This document shows positions 1-32,566 of a DNA stretch of 32,566 bases, one piece after another. The notes under the pieces are model-generated. The model did not search any database and was not told the DNA's origin. It was given only the letters and a program-made list of their open reading frames with translations. Location of the stretch: UHGV virus genome UHGV-0085244; one strand, 5' to 3'. Position 1 is the first letter of the stretch. The number at the start of each line of letters is the position of its first letter. The position numbers and the translations under genes are program-made. Origin of the DNA: a virus.

Positions 1-10
1 TTTGTGGAGC

Positions 11-52
11 CCATCAACCCCGCCATTTCGGTTCAAGGTTGATGGGTTTTTT
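11..52 (+). terminator. Rho-independent terminator-like hairpin of a flanking host gene; its 3' arm and T-run contain the att core
   Basis: Stem CCATCAACCC (11-20) pairs with GGTTGATGGG (37-46), followed by TTTTTT (47-52). Confidence 0.6.
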
Positions 53-55
53 GTT
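42..55. repeat. att core copy at the ogr-proximal prophage end (attR in P2 convention)
   Basis: ATGGGTTTTTTGTT identical to 32512-32525; similarity extends to 42-63 vs 32512-32533 with 2 mismatches. Confidence 0.75.
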
Positions 56-132
56 GTCTGAAATTTAAGCTGTTTAAAATCATGATGTTAGAAGCACTAT
101 TCTTTAACGATGGCGACAAAATGGCGGCAGCG

Positions 133-351
133 TCAAAGAGAGAGCGCCACCTGTCCTGATTTCATTGGATGCGGCTGAACCGGATTTGACTCTTTTGGCG
201 TTGCAATCGAACGAACAAAAGTTTCATGGGTAACAAAAGTATGGCTGCAGTTAATGTTCTGGCACTGGTTGTAACGCTCTTTGGTCAATGAAGATACCTG
301 AAAACTGCTGCGAGTATGGGCGGCACTTCCACACAGTGGGCAAATCATCAT
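133..351 (-). CDS. ogr: Ogr-type zinc-finger late-gene transcriptional activator
   Basis: ORF 133..384; CPLC...HTRSS...ERYNQCQNINCSHTF matches the P2 Ogr Cys4 pattern; start taken at the internal ATG giving MMICPLCGS (start 348 equally possible); GGAGA RBS upstream. Confidence 0.85.
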   Translation of the reverse strand: MMICPLCGSAAHTRSSFQVSSLTKERYNQCQNINCSHTFVTHETFVRSIATPKESNPVQPHPMKSGQVALSL

Positions 352-7421: not shown

Positions 7422-7988
7422 TCAGGGAGATTTATTGTTCTTATTTGCCGGAAATTTTCGATAAATGGTAGAAACGCCTACATCAAAAATCAGTGCAATA
7501 CGCTGTCTTGATTCTCCGGCCTCGAGTAAACGCCCAATCTGTGCCCACTGTTCGCTGGTCAACTTAGGACGGCGTCCACCTACTCTGCCTTTAGCACGAG
7601 CTGCAGCCAGCCCCGCCCTGGTACGTTCAACTATCAGTTCGCGTTCCATTTCAGCCAGGGCACCCATGACATGAAAAAAGAAACGGCCCATTGGGGTGCT
7701 GGTATCAATACTGTCAGTCAGGCTTCGGAAATTCACGCCACGCTGGCGCAGCTCTTCTATCAGCGTAACAAGATGCCGCATACTGCGCCCCAGTCTGTCC
7801 AGCTTCCAGACAACCAGCGTGTCTCCTGCCGATAGTGTCCTGAGCAGCTTTTTCAGCCCCGGTCTGTCGGACTTGGTGCCACTGATTTTATCCTCAAAAA
7901 TCCGCTCACATCCCGCACAGTTCAGTGCATTGCGTTGCAAATCGGTGTTCTGGTCATTTGTTGACACGCGTACATAGCCAATAAGCAT
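7422..7988 (-). CDS. Serine-recombinase DNA invertase (Hin/Gin/Cin/Pin family)
   Basis: N-terminus MLIGYVRVSTNDQ with catalytic-Ser context, C-terminal HTH; start placed at the ATG 6 nt after a GGGGG RBS (track ORF 7422..7994). Confidence 0.9.
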   Translation of the reverse strand: MLIGYVRVSTNDQNTDLQRNALNCAGCERIFEDKISGTKSDRPGLKKLLRTLSAGDTLVVWKLDRLGRSMRHLVTLIEELRQRGVNFRSLTDSIDTSTPMGRFFFHVMGALAEMERELIVERTRAGLAAARAKGRVGGRRPKLTSEQWAQIGRLLEAGESRQRIALIFDVGVSTIYRKFPANKNNKSP

Positions 7989-8043
7989 GATCATCCCCCT
8001 GAATAAAAACCGGAGATGATGCCAGTTAGCCGTTATCTCTGCA

Positions 8044-8068
8044 TTTTCATAAACGTTGGTTTGGGAGA
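8044..8068. repeat. Invertase crossover site (hix/gix-like), invertase-proximal
   Basis: TTTTCATAAACGTTGGTTTGGGAGA; inverted-repeat partner at 9592-9616. Confidence 0.7.
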
Positions 8069-8405
8069 GGGAGCAAAATTAGGCGCAGCGGTGTGTGTGA
8101 CCGGCTCTACAGGCTATATGACTATCCCGGCAATGGTCGCCGGGAAAGAACGGGTGATCATATTGCAGTGGTTTGATGCCTCTACAAGTGGTTATGCGAC
8201 ACCAGTAACTGCGAATTTCCCTATTGCATTCCCAAATGAGTGCATGATTCCGTTATTTAGTGATGTATCAACTGGGGCTGCTGATTTGAGTTCTACAACT
8301 GCATATAATTTGGCTGTTGGTAGAACGTATTACACTGGTATGACAAAAACTCAAATTACATGTGCTGGCTACGGTGGCTTTAGAGTTTTCGCGATTGGAT
8401 GGTGA
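8069..8405 (+). other. Silent alternative tail-fibre C-terminal cassette (Sv'-like), expressed only after inversion
   Basis: Part of ORF 8016..8405; shares ILQW and FPIAFPN motifs with the C-terminus of H; no plausible promoter or start of its own. Confidence 0.65.
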
Positions 8406-8410
8406 TTAAT

Positions 8411-8830
8411 ATGTTTTATTCTGCAAAAGAAAATGCGTTCTACGCTGATGAGCTAAAAAGTATTTATGAAAATGCAGGTAGCTGGCCTGACGATGCCGTT
8501 GAAGTAGACTATTCCGTATTCGTTGAGTTTGCCGGAGAATCACCTAACGGAAAATTACGCGCTCCTAATTCTGATGGTTTACCTGAATGGATAGATATTC
8601 CCGAACCAACTGAAGAGGAAATTATTGCGTTGGCAGAAGCCGAAAAATCGCGACTGCGTGCTTCAGCTGACTCTGAAATAGAATGGCGGCAGGACGCCGT
8701 TGATGCGGGGATCGCGACGGAAGAAGAAACTGTTTCATTAGCCGAATGGAAAAAATACCGGGTGCTGCTGATGCGAGTTGATACAGCAGACCCGGACTGG
8801 CCTACTCCTCCGGCGACTCAGGCCAGTTGA
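8411..8830 (+). CDS. Alternative tail-fibre assembly chaperone (U'/G'-like), silent orientation
   Basis: [16 protein letters not shown]... parallels the minus-strand assembly protein [18 protein letters not shown]...; starts 6 nt after the Sv' stop. Confidence 0.75.
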
Positions 8831-9233
8831 TATCTGGTGCGCTGGATATGTCCACAGATTCCAGCGCATCGAGATAATCCAGCCACTCGTTATACTGGGC
8901 CTTCTCGTCGTCTGTAAGTCGTCCCAGCGCAGCTTTACCCGGCCACTGCTTGCTGTTTATATACTCATTAGCCTGATCGATACGATACTGTTTTTCAGCT
9001 TCAGCTGCTGCGATTTCCTCCTCATGGCTTAAAGGTGGAATGTCTACCCATGCCGGCATTCCATCCTCAGTAGCTCCACGAGTTTTACCCTCTGGTGGCA
9101 TCCCCGAATATTCAGTGAATGTCTCATCTGAGACGGCTATGAGATCGTCAGGCCAGTTTCTACTCGCTTCATAAACATCTCTGAGCTCATCAGGGTAGAA
9201 AGCGTTATTTAATGCTGAATAAAAATAAGCCAT
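8802..9233 (-). CDS. G: Tail-fibre assembly chaperone (currently expressed)
   Basis: 143-aa ORF directly downstream of H, P2 gpG-like. Confidence 0.85.
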
Positions 9234-9236
9234 TTA

Positions 9237-10652
9237 TTAATACCCCACAGCAAAATAGTTAAACCCGCCAGCGCCGATGGATGATTCAGCGTTGGTTCCT
9301 GCCTGATAAGCGCGTAACTGAAAATCAGTGCTCGAAAAATTTTGGGCGGTTAACACAAAACCTTGCCCTACCCCCCCAACTGACTGATCGGTTGCCACAA
9401 CACACAATGCCCTGTTTGGAAATGCAATTGGGAATGATACTGTTTCTGGGGATGTTTTCGTTTTGGTTATTGCCCATTGAAGAATTAACCCGCCTGGCAG
9501 GTATTGATACCCCGAATCGGCTCGCTGATTACCAAATGAAGACATGTCCGGAATCTGTCCGGAACCAGTGCCAACATTTTTTTTTGCCGCATCTCCTAAA
9601 CCAAGGTATGTGAGAAGACCAGCTACATCCTTTCCACTCAAATTGGTAAGCGTATTGTCCAGCGGTTGTTTACCTGCCAGCGCATTAAGCATTGTCGTGG
9701 CAAAGTTCGGATCATTCCCCAGTGCCGCCGCCAGTTCGTTCAGTGTATCCAGTGCAGCAGGTGCAGAACCCACCATTCCTGCAATCGCCGATTTCACAAA
9801 AGCCGTAGTGGCAATCTGTGTATTGTTGACCGACTGCGCCGCCGTGGGGGCTGTTGGCGTTCCGGTGAGTGCCGGACTCGACAACGGTGCTTTTAGTGCC
9901 AGCGCATTGTTAATGGTGGTACTGAAATTCGGATCATTGTTAATGGCTGCGGCTATTTCTTTCAGCGTGTCCAGCGTGGCTGGCGCACCATTAATAAGGG
10001 CCGTCAGTGCCGCCTGTACAAACGCAGTGGTCGCAACCTGCGTGGTATTATTCCCCGCCGCTGGCGTTGGCGCTTTGGGGGTTCCGGTAAATGTCGGGCT
10101 GGCTTTTGGCGCGTACTGTGAATGCGGGTCCGGTGCGGCAAGATGTTTTGCCATCTGATCATCCGCGTACACCTTCAGCTCCAGTGCCTTGTCATCCACA
10201 TACTTGCGGGTTGCCAGCACTACAGCAGGGTCGATTTTCAGGGTGATATTGTCCGTGCTGCTGGTAATCAGCACCATGCGCACGGTCTGAGTGCGCCCGC
10301 TACCTTCAGCCAGTTGCGGCTTATAGCTTTCCGGGCAGTTGCCCACGGCAATCAATGCCCCTGACTCATCAAACAGGCCCACTTCACGTATCCACCAACC
10401 GCCCTCGTTTTCAGGGATCACCTGTTCGGCAATAATCTGGCTGCTGTTCTGCGGGTCGATATAAAGCATATTCAGCGCAGCCCGGCGTTTCTCATTTACC
10501 AGTGCCGTCTGCTTTGCGTCCGGCGTTGGCAATACTCCACCGCCATCGCCCACCGCCATATGGGTAATTTTTAGCGGCACACCGAGCGCGGCGGCGCTGG
10601 CAAGTTTCGCCGCGCCAATATCCGTCAGCAGGGTATAAAATTTTGTGCTCAT
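9237..10652 (-). CDS. H: Tail-fibre protein; constant N-terminal part fused to the variable C-terminal cassette in the current orientation
   Basis: 471-aa ORF; N-terminus MSTKFYTLLTDIGAAKLA... as I recall for P2 gpH; crossover site at codons about 346-354. Confidence 0.9.
   Translation of the reverse strand: MSTKFYTLLTDIGAAKLASAAALGVPLKITHMAVGDGGGVLPTPDAKQTALVNEKRRAALNMLYIDPQNSSQIIAEQVIPENEGGWWIREVGLFDESGALIAVGNCPESYKPQLAEGSGRTQTVRMVLITSSTDNITLKIDPAVVLATRKYVDDKALELKVYADDQMAKHLAAPDPHSQYAPKASPTFTGTPKAPTPAAGNNTTQVATTAFVQAALTALINGAPATLDTLKEIAAAINNDPNFSTTINNALALKAPLSSPALTGTPTAPTAAQSVNNTQIATTAFVKSAIAGMVGSAPAALDTLNELAAALGNDPNFATTMLNALAGKQPLDNTLTNLSGKDVAGLLTYLGLGDAAKKNVGTGSGQIPDMSSFGNQRADSGYQYLPGGLILQWAITKTKTSPETVSFPIAFPNRALCVVATDQSVGGVGQGFVLTAQNFSSTDFQLRAYQAGTNAESSIGAGGFNYFAVGY
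9592..9616. repeat. Invertase crossover site (hix/gix-like) inside tail-fibre gene H
   Basis: TCTCCTAAACCAAGGTATGTGAGAA, reverse complement of the 8044-8068 site with about 5 mismatches. Confidence 0.7.
9660..10091 (-). repeat. Tandem in-frame duplication of about 70 codons within H
   Basis: Protein repeats TTQVATTAFVQAALTALINGAPATLDTLKEIAAAINNDPNFSTTINNALALKAPL and NTQIATTAFVKSAIAGMVGSAPAALDTLNELAAALGNDPNFATTMLNALAGKQPL. Confidence 0.7.
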
Positions 10653-21898: not shown

Positions 21899-21932
21899 GT
21901 TTAAACTGGCTGTCGAAACAGCCAGTTTAAAC
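21899..21932. other. Perfect 15-bp-stem hairpin (4-nt loop) between convergent Q and the cargo operon; possible bidirectional terminator
   Basis: GTTTAAACTGGCTGT-CGAA-ACAGCCAGTTTAAAC; no flanking U-tract on either strand. Confidence 0.5.
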
Positions 21933-22775
21933 ACCGGCACCAATGAAATCGCCATATGAATCTTCTTCAAGGCTGATGTATTCCACCCTCCATTGATCCA
22001 TCCGCCTCAATGCATACAGGGAGAAATGAGTATCGGCAACAGCAATGCACGTATTCAATTCTATAAGCTCTGAATGTCCCAAGATTGGATCACCATAAAA
22101 CTTATAAAACAATGCCTTTAGATCAGAACAGGTTTGTTCAGCCGCCCCTCTGGCATCGGGGCCACCTTCAGTTGCATCATAAACAACATTGATAGAAAGC
22201 TCATATGGTATGCCTTCCTCAAGATCGTTAAATCTTTCTTCGCCCAAATCGAAAAAAACTCCGATCAAATGCTCTGCGTTTGTGGCGATAATGTCCGCAA
22301 CTTCTTTTTCGAAAATAAACTTTTTATCCTCGTCGTAAGCCCGCAAGCGCTCTTCAAACGAGTTAGGAAACGCTGGACGACCATACTTAGCTGCTAACCA
22401 TTGCTTAAGAGCTTGTTTCTCTTCTGTGCTAATGGAGAATGCCGGATCGTTTTCCTCACAACGGAAAGCTTCTTTAGAAATGATGACTTTTCTTTCATGC
22501 CGAAGCTCTACTGCGTTCTTCTTAGCACTTTCTGGGTTTTCAAAGCATAGATCGAGGATTCTCGGATGCTTAGCTCTTTTCATCTTGCTTGACCCCTTTT
22601 TCAAGGGGCCAAACATCAGTTCCACGTTTTTTTCAGAATTACTCTGTAAATCACAATCATGCGTTATAACTACAACTTTATGGTTCGTTTCATCAGGCTT
22701 CAGAAGTCCAAGTGAAACGGCATCATCATGTTTAAGAACATGCCCCTGACGCCATGATGTTCCTCGTACCAACAT
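21927..22775 (-). CDS. Hypothetical protein, third gene of the cargo operon; function unknown
   Basis: 282-aa ORF with ATG start 9 nt after the preceding stop; AT-rich; no P2/186 counterpart recognised. Confidence 0.7.
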   Translation of the reverse strand: MLVRGTSWRQGHVLKHDDAVSLGLLKPDETNHKVVVITHDCDLQSNSEKNVELMFGPLKKGSSKMKRAKHPRILDLCFENPESAKKNAVELRHERKVIISKEAFRCEENDPAFSISTEEKQALKQWLAAKYGRPAFPNSFEERLRAYDEDKKFIFEKEVADIIATNAEHLIGVFFDLGEERFNDLEEGIPYELSINVVYDATEGGPDARGAAEQTCSDLKALFYKFYGDPILGHSELIELNTCIAVADTHFSLYALRRMDQWRVEYISLEEDSYGDFIGAGV

Positions 22776-22784
22776 AAATGTGAT

Positions 22785-23447
22785 TTATTCCTCTACTGTT
22801 CTAGGAATTGAAATAGATGACTTCCAATCATCTGTCGGTTTCGCCTTGCTTGCTAAGTAATTGGTCGATTCAGCAGCTGCATTCATCGCTTTAGCTTCAT
22901 CAATCAGTACCTGAACTGGCTTGTTCCAATCCTCACCTTCTTTTATTAAGTCCATCAATGACCTACCATTGAATGCTTTCATTTTCACCAATAGCTTCGC
23001 ATCATTGAGTCCAGCTTTGGAAAAAGAGTCAGCAACATTACTGAGGTTGGTAATGAATTGGACTTTTGAAGCATCATCAGGCTGGTTCTCCCCTGACAAC
23101 CATTTATAGAGAGCCTGCCGAGTTATCCCCAAATCCTTAGCCAGTTCTGACATTGATGGAGACAGCACTTCTCGAATATTAGCCAAATGTTGGGCAACAT
23201 TCCTGACATCAACCTCAGGAGAAATTGCAGGCGTGTACGTTGACTCTATGGAATCAAATGCAAACTGAACCCTTGGCTGAACATACTGACGCCATTGCTT
23301 ATAAGCATTTACAGGGTATGAAGCCCCCGTACCAACTAATAGTAAAGATGCGGCGACAGCAACAACACCTGATACACATGAGCTTGACTGCGAATCTGGA
23401 GTATACCGATCTACAGAGCCTATGCTTCCAGTAGGAATTGCATACAT
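22785..23447 (-). CDS. XRE-family helix-turn-helix protein with N-terminal hydrophobic segment, second gene of the cargo operon
   Basis: HTH ...NVAQHLANIREVLSPSMSELAKDLGITRQALYKWLSGENQP; start placed at the ATG (MYAIPTG...) after a GGGGGTGA RBS; the track's longer form 22785..23555 would overlap the upstream gene by 89 nt; start uncertain. Confidence 0.65.
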   Translation of the reverse strand: MYAIPTGSIGSVDRYTPDSQSSSCVSGVVAVAASLLLVGTGASYPVNAYKQWRQYVQPRVQFAFDSIESTYTPAISPEVDVRNVAQHLANIREVLSPSMSELAKDLGITRQALYKWLSGENQPDDASKVQFITNLSNVADSFSKAGLNDAKLLVKMKAFNGRSLMDLIKEGEDWNKPVQVLIDEAKAMNAAAESTNYLASKAKPTDDWKSSISIPRTVEE

Positions 23448-23466
23448 TTTAGTCACCCCCGTTGTT

Positions 23467-24276
23467 TCAGTGCCATTTAGCACGGGCAAAATCTGAAACC
23501 ATGCCTTCAAATGCTTCTTTAACTTTACTATGCAACGAAAGAATCTGTTTTTCAATTAACTGCAAATCAGTTGACATGTTGCCTTCAACATAATGATCTG
23601 TATCAATTATTGCGTGCATACGATGTTCTGTATTACTAAATCTCGGCAGCGGCAGTAAACCATTAGGAATCATATCTGGCGGAAAACCTAGCTGACCATT
23701 CATCTTATGTATACGTGAAACCATAAATCCATTAGAGATCAGTGGCTCAACACATGTCTGATATACAGACTCTTGTATGGACTGTATTGGCGTCCATCCA
23801 AAATCAACACCATGAAGTTCCTTTACAAGATACTGCTCAATTGTTTCGCTTTTCTCAGGAAACACAGCATCCAAATATCGAAGCCCAATCCTGCTTACCA
23901 ACGATGGCTTAGCAAATTCAAGAACTTTGCTCAGACCAAGTATTAATGACGAGATGAAAGGTACATGATTATCATAATCTGTTGTATGGAACGTAATGAA
24001 ATCGTTGCCTAAAACAAAACCAGACCTTCTATCTGCATCAATCATCAACCAACTTGTCACAGGCTCAAATGAATGTACCGGTGGCTCATTGGGGTTTTTC
24101 ATTTCAAATTTCAGCTGAGTTGTATTGGAAACTTCAAATAAAGGAAATCCTTCAACTCTTAGCGCATCTTGTATGTCTGGAACATACTTACTCATTGCAG
24201 CTACTGGAGTAAACTTTACTTGCACCAATGCGTAGTAAACGGGCGCATTGGACATACGTTCGCTGTTAGTACTCAT
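23467..24276 (-). CDS. Hypothetical protein, first gene of the cargo operon; function unknown
   Basis: 269-aa ORF with AGGAGG RBS 5 nt before the ATG; N-terminus (SNAPVYYALVQVKF) faintly recalls an uncharacterised TIGR04255-type family, from memory and unverified. Confidence 0.7.
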   Translation of the reverse strand: MSTNSERMSNAPVYYALVQVKFTPVAAMSKYVPDIQDALRVEGFPLFEVSNTTQLKFEMKNPNEPPVHSFEPVTSWLMIDADRRSGFVLGNDFITFHTTDYDNHVPFISSLILGLSKVLEFAKPSLVSRIGLRYLDAVFPEKSETIEQYLVKELHGVDFGWTPIQSIQESVYQTCVEPLISNGFMVSRIHKMNGQLGFPPDMIPNGLLPLPRFSNTEHRMHAIIDTDHYVEGNMSTDLQLIEKQILSLHSKVKEAFEGMVSDFARAKWH

Positions 24277-25224: not shown

Positions 25225-27639
25225 TTAATACAGATCCCGCCACTTATCATCTTCCTGCAAACGCTGGTTCCGATAGAAGATACGCAGGCCTGCTCCTGAC
25301 GGAATACTGCCACCGCGAAGGAGTAAATCGACCTCTTTCTCGCTTCCATCAAATCCTCTGGACTTCAGTTCATAGACGAGCTGCTGTCGCTGATGATCTG
25401 TAATTCGCTGTTTGTAGTCTCTACGCCGTTTCGGTTTCACCAGGCGTAACCTTGCAGCCAGTTCCCGGCGCTCTTTTTTGTTCATACTGTGCAGGTAATC
25501 GTGCAATTCCTTGTCATCCATGCAGGTGATATCCGTTCTGGTATCCCCATCAGCTGATTTGTCTTTCCCTTGTTGGTACAAATTTTCAGCAAGGGGACAG
25601 TTATTGCCACGAGTCCAAGGGGCGCAAGCGCCCTGGTCGGCTGCCGCCTCCTGAACGTCAACGGCCTTACGAACCATTTTCCACTTCACTACATGAGTGC
25701 AGATCTTGCCCTCTGCAATGGGTGACCAGATGCCATAAATACGAATACCGTGATCGCCATAGGCGGTTGGCTCTTCGTTGATTTCATAAGCGGTTCTGAT
25801 GAGGTGATATTTGCGGGGAACCAGTACGCCGCCCTGCTTCATGATGTAGGTGGCAAAACAACCAGCATCAGCAGCAGCCAGAATGGCATCAAGACGCGGG
25901 TTATCCAGTACCGGCGCACCTGCTTTTTTGTCACCCTGTTGCCTTGCCGCCTGACCAGCCAGCAAGCGAAGTTCACGGTAAGCCTGACGTCCCGGAATAC
26001 CAAAGAAGCGGAATTGCTGAACACGATGCAGAGACGCCCAGGCATTAACGTATTCAGCGTTATCACGCAGGGATTTACCCGTTTCCTTGCTGATCTCGCC
26101 AGCCAGACCACGCCCGTCAATGTTCTTACTGATGTATTTCGCGATGTAGCTTGTCGGCGTTCCTTTGCGCGGGTTTATCAGCTCAGATTTAAAGCGTGGA
26201 CCAGTGTTATTACCCAGTTCCTCGCGGTCTTCACGGATGGCAAACTTACGCAACAATGCAGTAATGGCGCGGCGGTCTTTTTTGCGCATGAAACACAACA
26301 GGTGCCAGTGAACTGTACCGTCATGATGCGGCTCAGCCACCCGCACGCCATACCAGCGCAACCCGGCTTTGTGCATCGCCTTACGAAATGCAGCAAACAT
26401 GCCGACCAGATAATCGCTGCTTTGTCTTACCGTCGCATTTGTCCAGGTTGGGTTTGGTCTGCCGTTATTGAGCGTGGAATGGAAACGTGACGGACAGGTA
26501 ATGGTGTAGAAAACGGCGCAGTCACCGCGCATTTCCGCGATAAGCTCCAGACCTTTAACACAGGCCATCATCTCATTGCGGCGGTGCGCCGGGTTGCTGC
26601 TGCTGGCGTTTACCACGTCTTCCATATCCAGCGTGTCGCCCTCTTCGTTCACCAGTTCATGAGAACGGAAAAACTCCAGTGACTTGCGGCGCTGCTCACG
26701 TTTATGCATCACGGCTTCATAGCTGACATAGGGAGATGCTTTTTTGCTGACCAGGCAGACAGCACGCAACTGCTCTTCCCGCCATTCGCAACGCATTTTC
26801 CATAATTTCCGGTACCACCAGTCGGCGCACAACATACGCGCCAGCGAACCCGGAATGAGTTCATAGGGCACGGGTTTACGGCGGTTTCTTTTCCGACGGA
26901 GTTGCTCAAACGCAGGCGGGATGACATCCAGACGCAGGGTTTCCGCTGCCACCTTTTCCCATGTCTTGCGGATTTCTTCTGGCTTAACGTCATCGGTGGC
27001 ATACAAATCACCACAAGCTGCATCAAGGCACATGCTCATATGCGCAGCGACAAGGGTAGACAGGCGTTTCACCTGATCCTGACTCATTTCAGGCAGAATC
27101 AGCAGGCCGTCCAGCCCTACATGGCTTGCCATAAAACGAAAAGATGCAGATAGCTGGCTGTCGCGTACATGCTCCAGTCGTTCCAGACATGGCTTAATCG
27201 TCTCACGTAAATAGCGGGAATAAGCCTTTGGCCTGCCCAGGCTGCTGAAGTATTCAATACGTTGCATCAGCGGCTTGCTGATATGGGAGGGCTGGGCGCT
27301 GACGTCTACCAGAATGACCATGTCCGGGTTAAAACGCTGCTGCTCATGCGCCAACTTTGCCCGGCTAATGAGCTTATCCTGCTCTATTTCGCGTTGGACA
27401 GGATCACGGGATTCATTAAAGAAATAACGCTCCCAGACCTGATCACTCAGTGCCTCGCGGCGCAGTTGTTCCTGCTCGTTATCGGCAGCGTACAGAGTGA
27501 TCAGGTTTGAAAGCGCAGAAACCGGCGCAACTTCCGCCGGGTCCAGATAAGGGTTAATGGCCTTTTTCGGGCTGTTCCATGAGAACGATGCGGCAGCCTC
27601 TTTAAAGCCGCAGCAGTTGCTCATATCGGCATGGCTCAT
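25225..27639 (-). CDS. A: Replication initiation protein A (rolling-circle nicking endonuclease)
   Basis: 804-aa ORF with HWHLL (HUH-like) and YIAKYISK tyrosine motifs; P2 gpA-like. Confidence 0.9.
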
Positions 27640-28493
27640 GCACGTACTCCGTACACGGCAGAACTATCCACGCCACGCGAATAATCAAATCCCACCCAGC
27701 AGCGCGGCCCGGAAACAGCAATGATTTCTGTTGCTGATTTACTCTCACCAGCTGCTACGCCGATGCTGCGTTTTACCTTGATATAGTGGTGAGTAAAATT
27801 GCGATACAGCGAACGGATCAGGGATGTGTCACTGTTAGAAACAATTACCGGATGTCCTTCTGATGACCGATGTTCAAGAACGGATGCCAGGTGATACTGG
27901 TCATCTTCAGTAAAGCCGTCAGCGTGATAGCCGGAAAACGTACCGTCATAAGGCGGATCGCAATACACCACATCCCCCGCCTTCAACATCGCCAGCGTTT
28001 CATCAAAGCTGGCGCAGATAAACGTTGCTTGCTGGGCTTTCTCTGCAAATGCGCGAATTTCTTTTTCAGGGAAATACGGATTTTTATAATTACCGTATGG
28101 AATGTTGAAATGCCCGCTCTTGTTATAACGACATAACCCACGGTAACCATGACGATTGAGATACAGGAAATATACCGCTTTCATGAAATCAGTAATTTCA
28201 GTGGAGTAATTAAACTCCTGTCTTATGTTGTAATAAGCCAACTCCCTGTTTGCTTCCTCAAATAAAGCTCTGGCACGAGATATAAACGCCTCGCAATCAG
28301 CAGCAACCTTTTTATAGAGGTTGATTAAATCAGGATTAATGTCCGCAACCAGATAGCTGGGGTAATCCGTCTCCATCATCACAGCACAGGAACCCGCGAA
28401 AGGTTCAACCAGTCGCGGGCCAGCAGGAAGGTGTTTTTTCAGTTCGGACATAATGGCGGTTTTATTTCCCGCCCATTTCAGGATGGTGCTCAT
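27636..28493 (-). CDS. DNA adenine methyltransferase (Dam family, orphan)
   Basis: N-terminus [18 protein letters not shown] (AdoMet motif), CDPPY catalytic motif; start at the ATG overlapping the upstream stop (ATGA); track ORF 27636..28553 has a TTG start. Confidence 0.9.
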
Positions 28494-28717
28494 ACAGCAC
28501 CTCCGTTGTAATGTTTGCCTTTCAGCTCTGCAATTTCCTGGCAGGTAATGCAAAGCTGCACACCCGGAATGGCACGGCGGCGTGCTGGCGGAATTGGCGC
28601 TTCACACTCAATGCAAAGCACGCGAGACACGCCCGGTGTTTTGGCACGGGCAGCACGGATATGGCGCTGGCGTTCTTCTTCAACGCGCTGCTGTACGAGA
28701 TCCATTGCATCAGCCAT
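28490..28717 (-). CDS. TraR/DksA-family C4 zinc-finger protein
   Basis: 75-aa ORF with CIEC-X17-CITC. Confidence 0.75.
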   Translation of the reverse strand: MADAMDLVQQRVEEERQRHIRAARAKTPGVSRVLCIECEAPIPPARRRAIPGVQLCITCQEIAELKGKHYNGGAV

Positions 28718-30072: not shown

Positions 30073-30294
30073 CTAATTAAGGTTTAGATTGCATTCTGAA
30101 AGCGCATCAACGGTCATTGCTGCTATGTTGATCATCACTTTTTCGCGTTTTTTATCTTTGCGCAGACGGTGACGGATAAGGCGTCCATCAGCCAACATGT
30201 CATTGATGGTATCGATGGATAGCCCTGTCAGCTCGCTATAGCGTTCAATAGTCACATGAGGCGTGGTAAGAGTGATTGAAATGTTAGGTCTCAT
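30073..30294 (-). CDS. Cox/Apl-like small HTH protein (excision / lytic-switch regulator)
   Basis: 73-aa ORF with HTH-like [26 protein letters not shown], first gene of the rightward early operon, divergent from the repressor. Confidence 0.55.
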
Positions 30295-30419
30295 GATGCA
30301 ACATTCCTCGTTTAATGATGATTAATCAGGACGAATACGGATCGTTTGTATTTTGTGAACACTATAAACATACGATCGCACAGTGAAATCGTCAAGATAA
30401 AAGTTCACTTGGAGTGACC
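30295..30419. promoter_or_regulatory. Divergent lysis/lysogeny promoter-operator region
   Basis: 125-bp AT-rich region between divergent Apl/Cox-like and CI-like genes; short inverted repeats (GTGAAC...GTTCAC, GATCGT...ACGATC). Confidence 0.45.
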
Positions 30420-30989
30420 ATGAATTTGGAGAAAGGCGGACGAGGCGCCATAGAGCGCATGGTAGAAGCTTATGGATTCAAGACTCGACAGGCGTTGTGC
30501 GATCATTTAGGAATCTCTAAAAGTACACTCGCCACACGCTACATGCGTGACTCATTCCCAGCAGAATGGGTAATCCAGTGCGCCCTTGAAACAGGCACCT
30601 CGCTTAATTGGCTCACAACCGGGCATGGTTCAAAGCAAACTTCAGGTAATACAAATACTATGGAAGTTGCTAAATATGTATTATCTGATGGGGCCTTGTG
30701 TGAAGACGGTTTTTATATTTTCGATAGAGAATTTCTACCGTCGGCATTCAAGAATCTTTTTGTAATCACAGATAATAATTCTGAATTTATTTGTGATAAG
30801 GAATTTGATGATATACGTGATGGTAAATGGGTAATAAGTATTGATGGCGAAATAACGATCCGTGACATTACTCGTTTACCCGGTGGAAGAATCTTCGTCG
30901 AGGGTGGAAACAGAGCCTTCGAATGTAAGATAGAAGACATTGAAATAATTGGTAAAATTATAAGTTTAACAGTCAAGTATGTTAAATAG
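30420..30989 (+). CDS. Immunity repressor (186 CI-like)
   Basis: About 190 aa with N-terminal HTH (QALCDHLGISKSTLATRYMRD); ATG at 30420 after GGAG (track start GTG at 30414); divergent from the early operon and co-directional with int. Confidence 0.7.
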   Translation: MNLEKGGRGAIERMVEAYGFKTRQALCDHLGISKSTLATRYMRDSFPAEWVIQCALETGTSLNWLTTGHGSKQTSGNTNTMEVAKYVLSDGALCEDGFYIFDREFLPSAFKNLFVITDNNSEFICDKEFDDIRDGKWVISIDGEITIRDITRLPGGRIFVEGGNRAFECKIEDIEIIGKIISLTVKYVK

Positions 30990-31004: not shown

Positions 31005-31196
31005 ATGCTTGGTAAGGTATTTTTTGTGGTTTTGTCATGTTCTTTGTTATTAAACCCACTAGCTACCTATGCTAGAAATTATCCCTGCTCAGGGAAAAAG
31101 GGAGGTGTTTCTCACTGTACCTCTGATGGCAAATTCGTTTGCAATGATGGAACTATTAGTAAATCCAAAAAAATCTGTACTAAAAACTCACGATAA
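31005..31196 (+). CDS. Small secreted cysteine-rich peptide (signal peptide plus about 40-aa mature part with 4 Cys)
   Basis: GGGAGG RBS 6 nt before the ATG; [23 protein letters not shown] then [40 protein letters not shown]; AT-rich. Confidence 0.55.
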
Positions 31197-31384
31197 CTTT
31201 TGCTTTTATATCTGCGCCTAAAATAAAAATGAGCCACAGGTTAACCGCAAAAGTTACATGATCACATAGCAAAAAGAATAGCCTACTTCATTATGGCTTC
31301 AGTGAGATGTATGGTCGCAGGATTTCATACATTGACACTGGTTATACATACAGTAAAAATGCTCTCTATTGGAGGGCATTTTTT

Positions 31385-32437
31385 ATGGCTGTACGAAAAC
31401 TCACCACAGGAAAATGGCTTTGCGAATGTTACCCCGCCGGACGTAGTGGGCGTCGTGTGCGTAAACAATTCGCCACCAAAGGCGAAGCACTGGCTTTTGA
31501 GCGTCACACGATGGAAGAAACCGAAGCAAAGCCCTGGCTAGGTGAATCAGTGGATCGTCGAACACTGAAAGACGTGGTTGAGCTATGGTTCAAACTACAT
31601 GGTAAATCACTGACTGCTGGGCAGCATGTCTATGACAAATTGCTGCTGATGGTTGACGCTCTGGGCAATCCCCTTGCAACTGATCTAACCTCTAAAATGT
31701 TTGCCCACTATCGAGATAAACGCCTGACAGGTGAGATCTACTTCAGCGAGAAATGGAAGAAAGGAGCAAGCCCGGTCACCATTAACCTGGAGCAAAGCTA
31801 TCTAAGTAGTGTTTTTAGCGAACTATCCCGCTTGGGCGAATGGTCGTATCCGAACCCACTGGAGAACATGCGAAAATTCACCATCGCAGAAAAAGAGATG
31901 GCATGGCTTACCCATGAGCAGATTGTTGAATTACTGGCTGATTGCAAACGTCAGGACCCAATTCTGGCACTGGTAGTTAAGATATGCTTAAGCACAGGCG
32001 CACGCTGGCGAGAAGCCGTAAATCTTACTCGTTCACAGGTGACCAAATACCGAATTACCTTTGTAAGAACGAAGGGGAAGAAAAACAGAAGCATCCCTAT
32101 CAGTAAAGAGCTTTACGAAGAGATCATGGCGCTTGATGGGTTCAATTTCTTCACAGACTGCTATTTTCAATTTTTATCCGTGATGGAAAAAACGTCTATC
32201 GTGCTCCCTCGCGGTCAACTCACACACGTTCTGCGCCATACGTTTGCGGCGCACTTCATGATGTCGGGTGGAAACATTCTGGCCTTACAAAAAATTCTCG
32301 GACACCACGATATAAAAATGACTATGCGTTACGCACATCTGGCACCGGATCATCTGGAAACGGCGCTCCGTTTCAATCCTCTGGCAACGCTGCCAAGTGG
32401 CGACAAAGTGGCGACAGCGGTTGGCATTACCCCGTAA
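31385..32437 (+). CDS. int: Tyrosine integrase
   Basis: Start at MAVRKLTTGKW... with GGAGGG RBS (track ORF begins 31307); C-terminal HxxR...Y catalytic region (LRHTFAAHFMMSGG...MRYAHL). Confidence 0.9.
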   Translation: MAVRKLTTGKWLCECYPAGRSGRRVRKQFATKGEALAFERHTMEETEAKPWLGESVDRRTLKDVVELWFKLHGKSLTAGQHVYDKLLLMVDALGNPLATDLTSKMFAHYRDKRLTGEIYFSEKWKKGASPVTINLEQSYLSSVFSELSRLGEWSYPNPLENMRKFTIAEKEMAWLTHEQIVELLADCKRQDPILALVVKICLSTGARWREAVNLTRSQVTKYRITFVRTKGKKNRSIPISKELYEEIMALDGFNFFTDCYFQFLSVMEKTSIVLPRGQLTHVLRHTFAAHFMMSGGNILALQKILGHHDIKMTMRYAHLAPDHLETALRFNPLATLPSGDKVATAVGITP

Positions 32438-32497
32438 TAACCACCGCTGACCACCAACCTAACTTATTGATTATCTTGCAAGTCGTTGTTTTCACTA

Positions 32498-32523
32498 ACC
32501 CATTTACATAAATGGGTTTTTTG
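32498..32523 (+). terminator. Terminator-like hairpin rebuilt by phage DNA at the int-proximal att site
   Basis: ACCCATTT / AAATGGGT stem with 4-nt loop, then TTTTTT; the 3' arm and T-run are the att core. Confidence 0.6.
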
Positions 32524-32525
32524 TT
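32512..32525. repeat. att core copy at the int-proximal prophage end (attL in P2 convention)
   Basis: Identical 14-mer to 42-55, located 75 bp downstream of the integrase stop. Confidence 0.75.
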
Positions 32526-32566
32526 ATCTAAAACTTATCTACTACCCTGCAACCCTCTCAACCATC

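Follow-up and report, generated by a model that had tools for sequence, protein, structure and literature searches.

The 32,566-nucleotide stretch of DNA analysed here (the window) very probably contains an entire temperate phage, about 32.5 kb long and belonging to the P2/186 group (Peduoviridae), which carries its own tyrosine integrase and is integrated in the 3' end of the Escherichia coli small RNA gene rybB, between ybjL and rcdA. This is borne out by the boundaries of the insertion, by the empty site of E. coli K-12, by the identity of the host sequence as rybB, by a contiguous attachment site (attP) in a free phage and by the conservation of the arrangement. No evidence contradicting the integration model was found.

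The prophage is bounded by a direct repeat of 14 nucleotides, ATGGGTTTTTTGTT, one copy of which is the attL core at 42–55 and the other the attR core at 32512–32525, both read on the plus strand. These are the only two copies in the window, even with one mismatch tolerated, and shuffled sequences gave a mean of 0.01 matches, two being reached in 0 of 100 shuffles. The pair extends imperfectly to 26 nucleotides, 42–67 versus 32512–32537 (plus strand), of which 23 are identical (88%), with a start-to-start spacing of 32470. The window begins with the letters TTTGTGGAGCCCATCAACCCCGCCATTTCGGTTCAAGGTTGATGGGTTTTTTGTT and ends with ...CACTAACCCATTTACATAAATGGGTTTTTTGTTATCTAAAACTTATCTACTACCCTGCAACCCTCTCAACCATC. 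The empty site of K-12 MG1655 reads ...GGTTGATGGGTTTTTTGTTATCTAAAACTTATCTACTACCCTGCAACC..., which is base for base window 1–55 followed by 32526–32566; the same stretch of K-12, also given as ...GGTTGATGGGTTTTTTGTTATCTAAAACTTATCTACTACCCTGCAACCCTCTCAACCATC..., matches 1–55 and then 32526–32566, and the repeat consequently lies exactly at the insertion boundary. A sequence-only reading of the window had already placed the ends of the prophage at this repeat and had proposed a comparison with an empty site, which K-12 supplies, as it lacks the insert and breaks exactly at the repeat. That the repeat matches by coincidence, and that the hairpins beside it have no relation to the true insertion boundary, deserves virtually no credence. 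The exact repeat is short (14 nucleotides) and of low complexity, and nothing else speaks for such a coincidence. Against it stand the 0.01 matches expected from shuffling, the attP of a free phage which joins both phage sides at the same core, and the empty site, which breaks exactly at the repeat in K-12 and in the 4226 of the complete E. coli genomes with an intact K-12-type attB, a number obtained from a search whose identity bands mix empty and occupied sites. The shuffles and the empty-site comparison led to rejection of the chance repeat. For annotation the limits of the prophage are thereby fixed, with phage DNA from 56 to 32511 and the 14-nucleotide core at either end.

Alignment with the attP of Klebsiella phage KP12 and the K-12 empty site shows that the extended repeat is composed of two kinds of right half. 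Positions 56–67 are the phage-type half, GTCTGAAATTTA, and positions 32526–32537 the host half, of the K-12 type, ATCTAAAACTTA. At 56, 60, and 64 attL has the phage variant and attR the host variant, while to the left of the core base 41 is the host G and base 32511 the phage A. As these bases differ by host or phage origin, strand exchange must lie within 42–55, and the exact cleavage positions inside this core are ones that we infer. The identity of attL and attR stops after 14 nucleotides because the host has an attB right half of the K-12 type. The extended 22-mers do differ at the two positions previously counted, with G versus A at 56 and 60. These mismatches had been taken as marks of the crossover region; they form only its right-hand limit, the exchange being inside 42–55.

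The host sequence at the left end is the 3' part of rybB. RybB (RF00110) was the sole Rfam match in the window, located at 1–55 with 62.6 bits compared to a gathering score of 40 (E = 2.3e-10). The match covers model positions 25–79 and is cut at its 5' side only by the window edge. Window positions 1–52 (plus strand) correspond to RybB nucleotides 28–79 and are identical to the annotated rybB of K-12 (b4417, 79 nucleotides, between ybjL and rcdA), with the 5' 27 nucleotides and the promoter outside the window. In the terminator hairpin 10–19 is paired with 37–46, G.U and A-U pairs lengthen the stem into the U tract, and this tract of six U residues occupies 47–52. Folding of the 60-nucleotide segment yielded -23.3 kcal/mol with a z-score of -3.9. 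A simple terminator pattern scan did not flag the RybB terminator, since its 17-nucleotide loop is above the limit of the scan; folding and Rfam do show it. RybB is a sigma-E-dependent, Hfq-binding small RNA (PMC3632133), and the host hairpin is its Rho-independent terminator and as such part of a functional small RNA. It had thus been rightly proposed that the repeat supplies an intrinsic terminator of the host with its 3' arm and U tract, as seen from both Rfam and folding. ARAGORN found no tRNA or tmRNA at the junction or elsewhere in the window, and a tRNA or tmRNA was rejected as target on this ground. The absence of a tRNA target had also been foreseen; it is not unusual, as small RNA genes are known phage targets and the rybB site is documented.

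In its first interpretation the hairpin had been assigned to a protein-coding gene on the plus strand ending upstream of the window, which would be ybjL, and the phage was thought to rebuild the terminator in order to keep this gene terminated. We consider this highly improbable. It is true that ybjL, which has the same orientation, stops about 100 nucleotides short of the window. Reading of the sequence also shows no obvious GC-rich hairpin in the gap that separates it from rybB, and read-through from ybjL may therefore end at the rybB terminator as well. The hairpin and U tract are, however, the annotated 3' end of rybB and fit the RybB covariance model, rybB has its own start 27 nucleotides before the window, and the rebuilt hairpin is found at the opposite end of the prophage, 32 kb downstream. 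As the native terminator is wholly kept at attL, no host gene upstream requires any rebuilding. A protein-coding gene's terminator was therefore rejected as the target in favour of rybB, by the Rfam match and the K-12 annotation. These two also provide the identification of the host gene which had been called for, and the gene does not end just before the window, as had been supposed, but has nucleotides 28–79 inside it.

With rybB as the target, the consequence of integration for the host gene can be read from the attL junction. The core spans RybB nucleotides 69–79, that is ATGGG at the end of the 3' arm of the terminator and the six U residues, and three bases past the end of the RNA. Being identical to the last 11 nucleotides of the gene, the core leaves rybB intact at attL. 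This junction encodes an unchanged 79-nucleotide RybB with its native terminator, and phage DNA resembling that of the host takes over only from position +4 beyond the RNA 3' end. In the homologous lysogen strain LR-17-1 (L001) the order is ybjL, intact rybB, ogr ... int, rcdA; the bases preceding window position 1 agree fully with those of K-12 in this strain, in which the 5' part of rybB and its promoter region are intact. Termination of the host gene is hence preserved, as had been suggested, but by the core at attL and not by the hairpin at attR, which belongs to attP and lies downstream of int. For annotation the result names the interrupted locus and shows that the small RNA is left intact.

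On the other side of the prophage the host sequence is the 3' end of rcdA (stop codon and last codons, 32542–32566, minus strand), which is convergent with rybB; its coordinates were transferred by offset from the annotation of LR-17-1 and K-12. The stop codon at 32542–32544 (minus strand) is 16 nucleotides beyond the core, with a spacer of 16 nucleotides. At the empty locus only 19 nucleotides separate the 3' end of RybB from the stop codon of the convergent rcdA. In the lysogen rcdA faces a small phage hairpin and incoming cI-int transcription, not the RybB terminator.

The integrase is encoded at the right end of the prophage (31385–32437, plus strand) and is of the P2/186 type, with matches to Int_N (PF24624, 3e-32), Phage_integrase (PF00589, 1e-21), and phrog_1. 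Its likely start is at 31385, the longest open reading frame beginning at 31307, and the annotation as a protein of 350 amino acids comes from LR-17-1. The stop codon lies 75 nucleotides before the core. The integrase is 99% identical to that of Klebsiella phages (Kp48xx) and of E. coli phage vB_EcoM-813R9, 54% to Fels-2 Int, and 39% to P2 Int. When the phage sides were joined (...32525 followed by 56...) a predicted attP was obtained, and this 600-nucleotide reconstruction could be compared with free phages. In the isolated Klebsiella phage KP12 int, attP, and ogr are contiguous, with 96.7% identity over the 600 nucleotides, and Klebsiella phage 4LV2017 has an annotated att on the same core, beside Klebsiella rybB.

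Around the core the attachment site has candidate binding sites for the integrase. The motif TGGCGRCA-N3-TGGCGRCA occurs in the window only at 111–129 and 32398–32416, in the same orientation, where 0.01 matches are expected; a spacing of N4 gave no match, N3 being the correct one. The putative P' arm-type sites are the tandem TGGCGACA-AAA-TGGCGGCA at 111–129 (plus strand), found by pattern match and conserved in KP12 and 4LV2017, and the putative P arm-type sites the tandem TGGCGACA-AAG-TGGCGACA at 32398–32416 (plus strand), which lies in the last codons of int, 116 nucleotides ahead of the core GGG. Of 41 integrase loci from other species, 24 had an exact match to the arm pair downstream of int; where its distance was compared, in L005 and in L022, L031, and L040 of Serratia, it was likewise 116 nucleotides ahead of the GGG. 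Since the P arm repeat is inside the int coding sequence, part of its conservation could reflect the protein. The consensus published for 186-type arms, tgccGCCActt (PMC3448106), has TGGCGRCA as its reverse complement, which suggests the arm repeats as integrase binding sites. A perfect match to the IHF consensus, WATCAANNNNTTR, is found at 32460–32472 (minus strand), between the P arm repeats and the core. The window has two such matches, a count not above chance as at least two occurred in 28 of 100 shuffles, and it is the position of this match which is suggestive of its use as an IHF site. With tandem arm repeats on both sides, the IHF match, and a Cox/Apl-like excisionase encoded by the phage, the architecture of attP looks classical.

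From these elements integration very probably came about as follows. The phage attP carries the last 11 nucleotides of rybB and three further nucleotides, plus a 12-nucleotide segment resembling the host sequence, and strand exchange occurred within the 14 identical bases of the core. The resulting attL consists of host rybB joined to phage-derived downstream sequence, with the 79-nucleotide small RNA and its terminator unchanged, and attR of the phage arm, the core, and the rcdA side of the host. In attP the core ATGGGTT can pair with the phage sequence AACCCAT to form a small hairpin followed by a U tract, about 60 nucleotides after int.

Such a hairpin, AACCCATTT-ACAT-AAATGGGTT followed by U residues, was found at 32497–32522 (plus strand) by folding and by the pattern scan, which flagged it as terminator-like, approximately 60 nucleotides after the int stop codon. 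Positions 32497–32505 are paired with 32510–32518 in a stem of 9 base pairs including 3 GC pairs, with the loop ACAT, and TTTTGTT follows. The 5' arm and two A residues of the 3' arm are phage DNA and the remainder is the core; the idea that phage DNA supplies a new 5' arm at the right end is in agreement with this smaller hairpin. The predicted stability is -9.4 kcal/mol with a marginal z-score of -2.05, 10 of 200 shuffles folding as well. The hairpin is present in the attP of the isolated phage KP12, and AACCC(A/G)TTT-ACAT-AAATGGGTT with the following T residues is conserved behind the related integrases of some 25 enterobacterial species, from genera including Escherichia, Klebsiella, Raoultella, Citrobacter, Enterobacter, Kluyvera, Silvania, and Dryocola. 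The 5' arm has G for A in about half of the related prophages and T for C in one, and both changes yield G.U pairs in the RNA of int sense only. These wobble-compatible changes favour a terminator of the cI-int transcript, with the restriction that true covariation is impossible and the evidence one-sided, as the host core dictates the 3' arm.

On this basis the attP hairpin most likely terminates the cI-int transcript and stays beside int in the prophage. It is not what preserves rybB, as the end of this gene is regenerated at attL, 32 kb away. The modest stability and the marginal z-score would also suit a feature acting at the level of DNA, such as a palindromic protein-binding site or an Int site of the core type, or a structure that arose neutrally because the phage carries the 3' arm of rybB. 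The hairpin adjoins the crossover region, where core-type sites of Int are expected, and relatives from Serratia, Yersinia, and Hafnia (63–73% integrase identity), with the core TCGGGTTTTTT, form at best weak alternative hairpins. As these distant relatives are without an equivalent strong hairpin, it is not a universal requirement of the system. The A-to-G and C-to-T changes, however, which give G.U pairs in the int-sense RNA, are mismatches in DNA and in the RNA of opposite sense, and the U tract that follows, about 60 nucleotides after the int stop codon, is in the place expected for a terminator. A DNA-level or neutral origin of the hairpin is therefore regarded as rather unlikely compared to termination of the cI-int transcript.

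The attL junction was detected in 1106 of 5426 complete E. coli genomes, about one in five, when a coverage of at least 80%, that is at least 21 nucleotides beyond the quasi-repeat into phage DNA, was required. Empty E. coli rybB sites (K-12, L002, as well as L046 and L047) proved to be polymorphic in the 12–13 nucleotides to the right of the core. K-12 has the sequence given above for the host half (given also as ATCTAAAACTTAT), strain 1450 has GCCTGAAATTTA (also given as GCCTGAAATTTAT), which is the right half of the phage type. In strain S1-ESP-03-A the sequence is GCCTATAATTTAT, and the 3' arm of the RybB terminator has a G in place of an A. Such differences may have been left by earlier rounds of integration and excision, or the polymorphism may be an old one. 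A more far-reaching view would be that phage and host co-shape the locus, the attP hairpin being an evolved mini RybB terminator which provides the cI-int transcript with a small RNA-like, potentially Hfq-binding 3' end, and the variants to the right of the core being integration-excision footprints. We regard this as improbable. The right-half polymorphism of empty sites and the wobble-only variation of the 5' arm are minor points which may not have been documented.

Among the more distant loci, six from Serratia, Yersinia, and Hafnia (L022, L025, L031, L032, L039, and L040; 63–73% integrase identity) keep the spacing of the P arm and have the right half GTTGCCTGAAAT. The same six have the core of these relatives named above and another upstream sequence, without the 5' arm of the hairpin. 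Their cores are presumably adapted to the terminator of these hosts' own small RNA. The integrase was also encountered on short contigs assigned to Firmicutes, with 99% identity in JAEWTL010000113.1 (L006, a metagenome-assembled genome of a 'Bacillota bacterium') and 93% in 'Fredinandcohnia humi' (L042). The former also has an attR flank of the E. coli type. Contamination or mis-binning is the most likely explanation of these copies, rather than a host jump.

The remaining genes of the prophage are those of a P2-like phage. The late genes follow the P2 order, with ogr, D, U, T, E, FII, FI, tail fibres, baseplate, lysis, L, M, N, O, P, and Q. The last phage gene before attL encodes an ogr/delta-type late-gene activator (133–351, minus strand; PF04606, E = 7e-22; limits of the coding sequence from LR-17-1). 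The early genes include the replication endonuclease A and a Dam methylase (27636–28553), and CII, Cox/Apl, and CI make up a switch of the 186 type, with the tyrosine integrase at the right end. The Cox/Apl-like protein, excisionase (recombination directionality factor) and switch repressor, is encoded at 30073–30294 (minus strand) and matches phrog_575, 'Cox-like excisionase and repressor', with E = 6e-31. The 186-type CI immunity repressor (PF07022 and PF16452) is located at 30414–30989 (plus strand), upstream of int and on the same strand. Between cI and int, a 63-amino acid open reading frame at 31005–31196 (plus strand) has a hydrophobic N-terminus and several cysteines. It matches NCBIfam PRK10040.1-2 and phrog_6000, is called 'YdcA family protein' in one genome, and is likely to be an accessory gene expressed in lysogeny (a moron).

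Two further regions were noticed. A Hin/Gin-type serine invertase (7422–7994, minus strand; PF00239, E = 2e-53) lies beside oppositely oriented open reading frames for tail fibre and fibre assembly (8016–10652), where a 57-nucleotide imperfect inverted repeat was found at 8414–8470 and 9168–9224. Judged by its gene content and repeats, this region looks like an inversion switch for the tail fibre, that is for host range. The second region is a cassette of three cargo open reading frames at 21927–24276 (minus strand), between DinI and the portal gene Q, a position taken up in related prophages by the retrons Ec67 and Ec86 or by other genes. The three encode a protein of 282 amino acids, which matched only phrog_34320 of unknown function, a helix-turn-helix protein of 256 amino acids, and a TIGR04255-family protein of 269 amino acids (E = 2.5e-54). 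PADLOC gave no convincing match for any of the three, PADLOC and Pfam gave nothing for two of them, and neither Pfam nor PADLOC gave a reverse transcriptase or retron match in these three open reading frames. The cassette is possibly an uncharacterised anti-phage or accessory module, and it is likelier than the attachment site to hold something new.

The rybB site of P2-like prophages is already known and published, and the present observation is real but ordinary, since the prophage is in its usual, documented attachment site. Nilsson 2011 (PMC3448106) described PhiECO1, PhiECO2, and PhiECO3, of E. coli HS, ATCC 8739, and CFT073, as sharing one integration site, with the cores deduced from attL and attR. 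Archer 2011 (PMC3032704) gave 'rybB ncRNA' as the place where the P2-type prophages Rybb*W/B/Cr of E. coli W, B, and Crooks are inserted; of these, Rybb*B carries retron Ec86. In Hudson 2014 (PMC4048246) Kpn38RybB is placed 'precisely within the gene for RybB', and Hochhauser 2023 (PMC10121019) lists hotspot #29, with only Felsduovirus-type phages within rybB, in 109 genomes. Small RNA genes as phage targets in general were treated by Bobay 2013 (PMC3603311). Rediscovery of rybB, a documented hotspot for P2/186-type prophages, is thus of little discovery value; the site is a clean illustration of how a phage takes the 3' end of a small RNA terminator into its attP.

The closest known systems are the P2-like phages of the rybB site, that is PhiECO1/2/3, the Rybb* prophages, Kpn38RybB, the phages of hotspot #29, 4LV2017, KP12, and the Kp48xx phages. 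They share with the present prophage the site between ybjL/rybB and rcdA, the 14-nucleotide core, the integrase (99% to the Klebsiella phages and 813R9), the 186-type switch with CI, Cox/Apl, and CII, and the P2-type late genes. Only the cargo, here the three-gene cassette, and minor sequence differences set them apart. The retron-Ec67 prophage (Hsu 1990; Dodd & Egan 1996) appears in the part of PMC7826664 that cites it as a 34-kb, Dam-encoding, 186-related prophage with 26-bp direct repeats. By this description it resembles the present prophage (as does the Ec86 prophage of E. coli B) in size class, Dam methylase, 186-related backbone, and a flanking repeat of 26 nucleotides, the repeats being likened by length and described features and not by their letters. 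Compared to the Ec67/Ec86 prophages, the open reading frames in the corresponding cargo position are here without a reverse transcriptase or retron match.

The same logic of integration is seen in 186, HP1, and Fels-2/SopEPhi at the 3' ends of tRNA and tmRNA genes, in P2 at cyaR (ryeE), and in Salmonella prophages at ryeB (sdsR) (PMC3448106, PMC3603311). These phages have in common with the present one the tyrosine recombinase family, the arm sites, IHF, and a Cox/Apl directionality factor (PMC3448106, PMC3603311). In each case a small structured RNA gene has its 3' end repeated in the attP core and is consequently regenerated at one junction. In contrast to the phages at tRNA ends, where the T-arm and acceptor stem are the target, the present phage uses the Rho-independent terminator of a small RNA that depends on Hfq, and only 11 nucleotides of the gene are duplicated.
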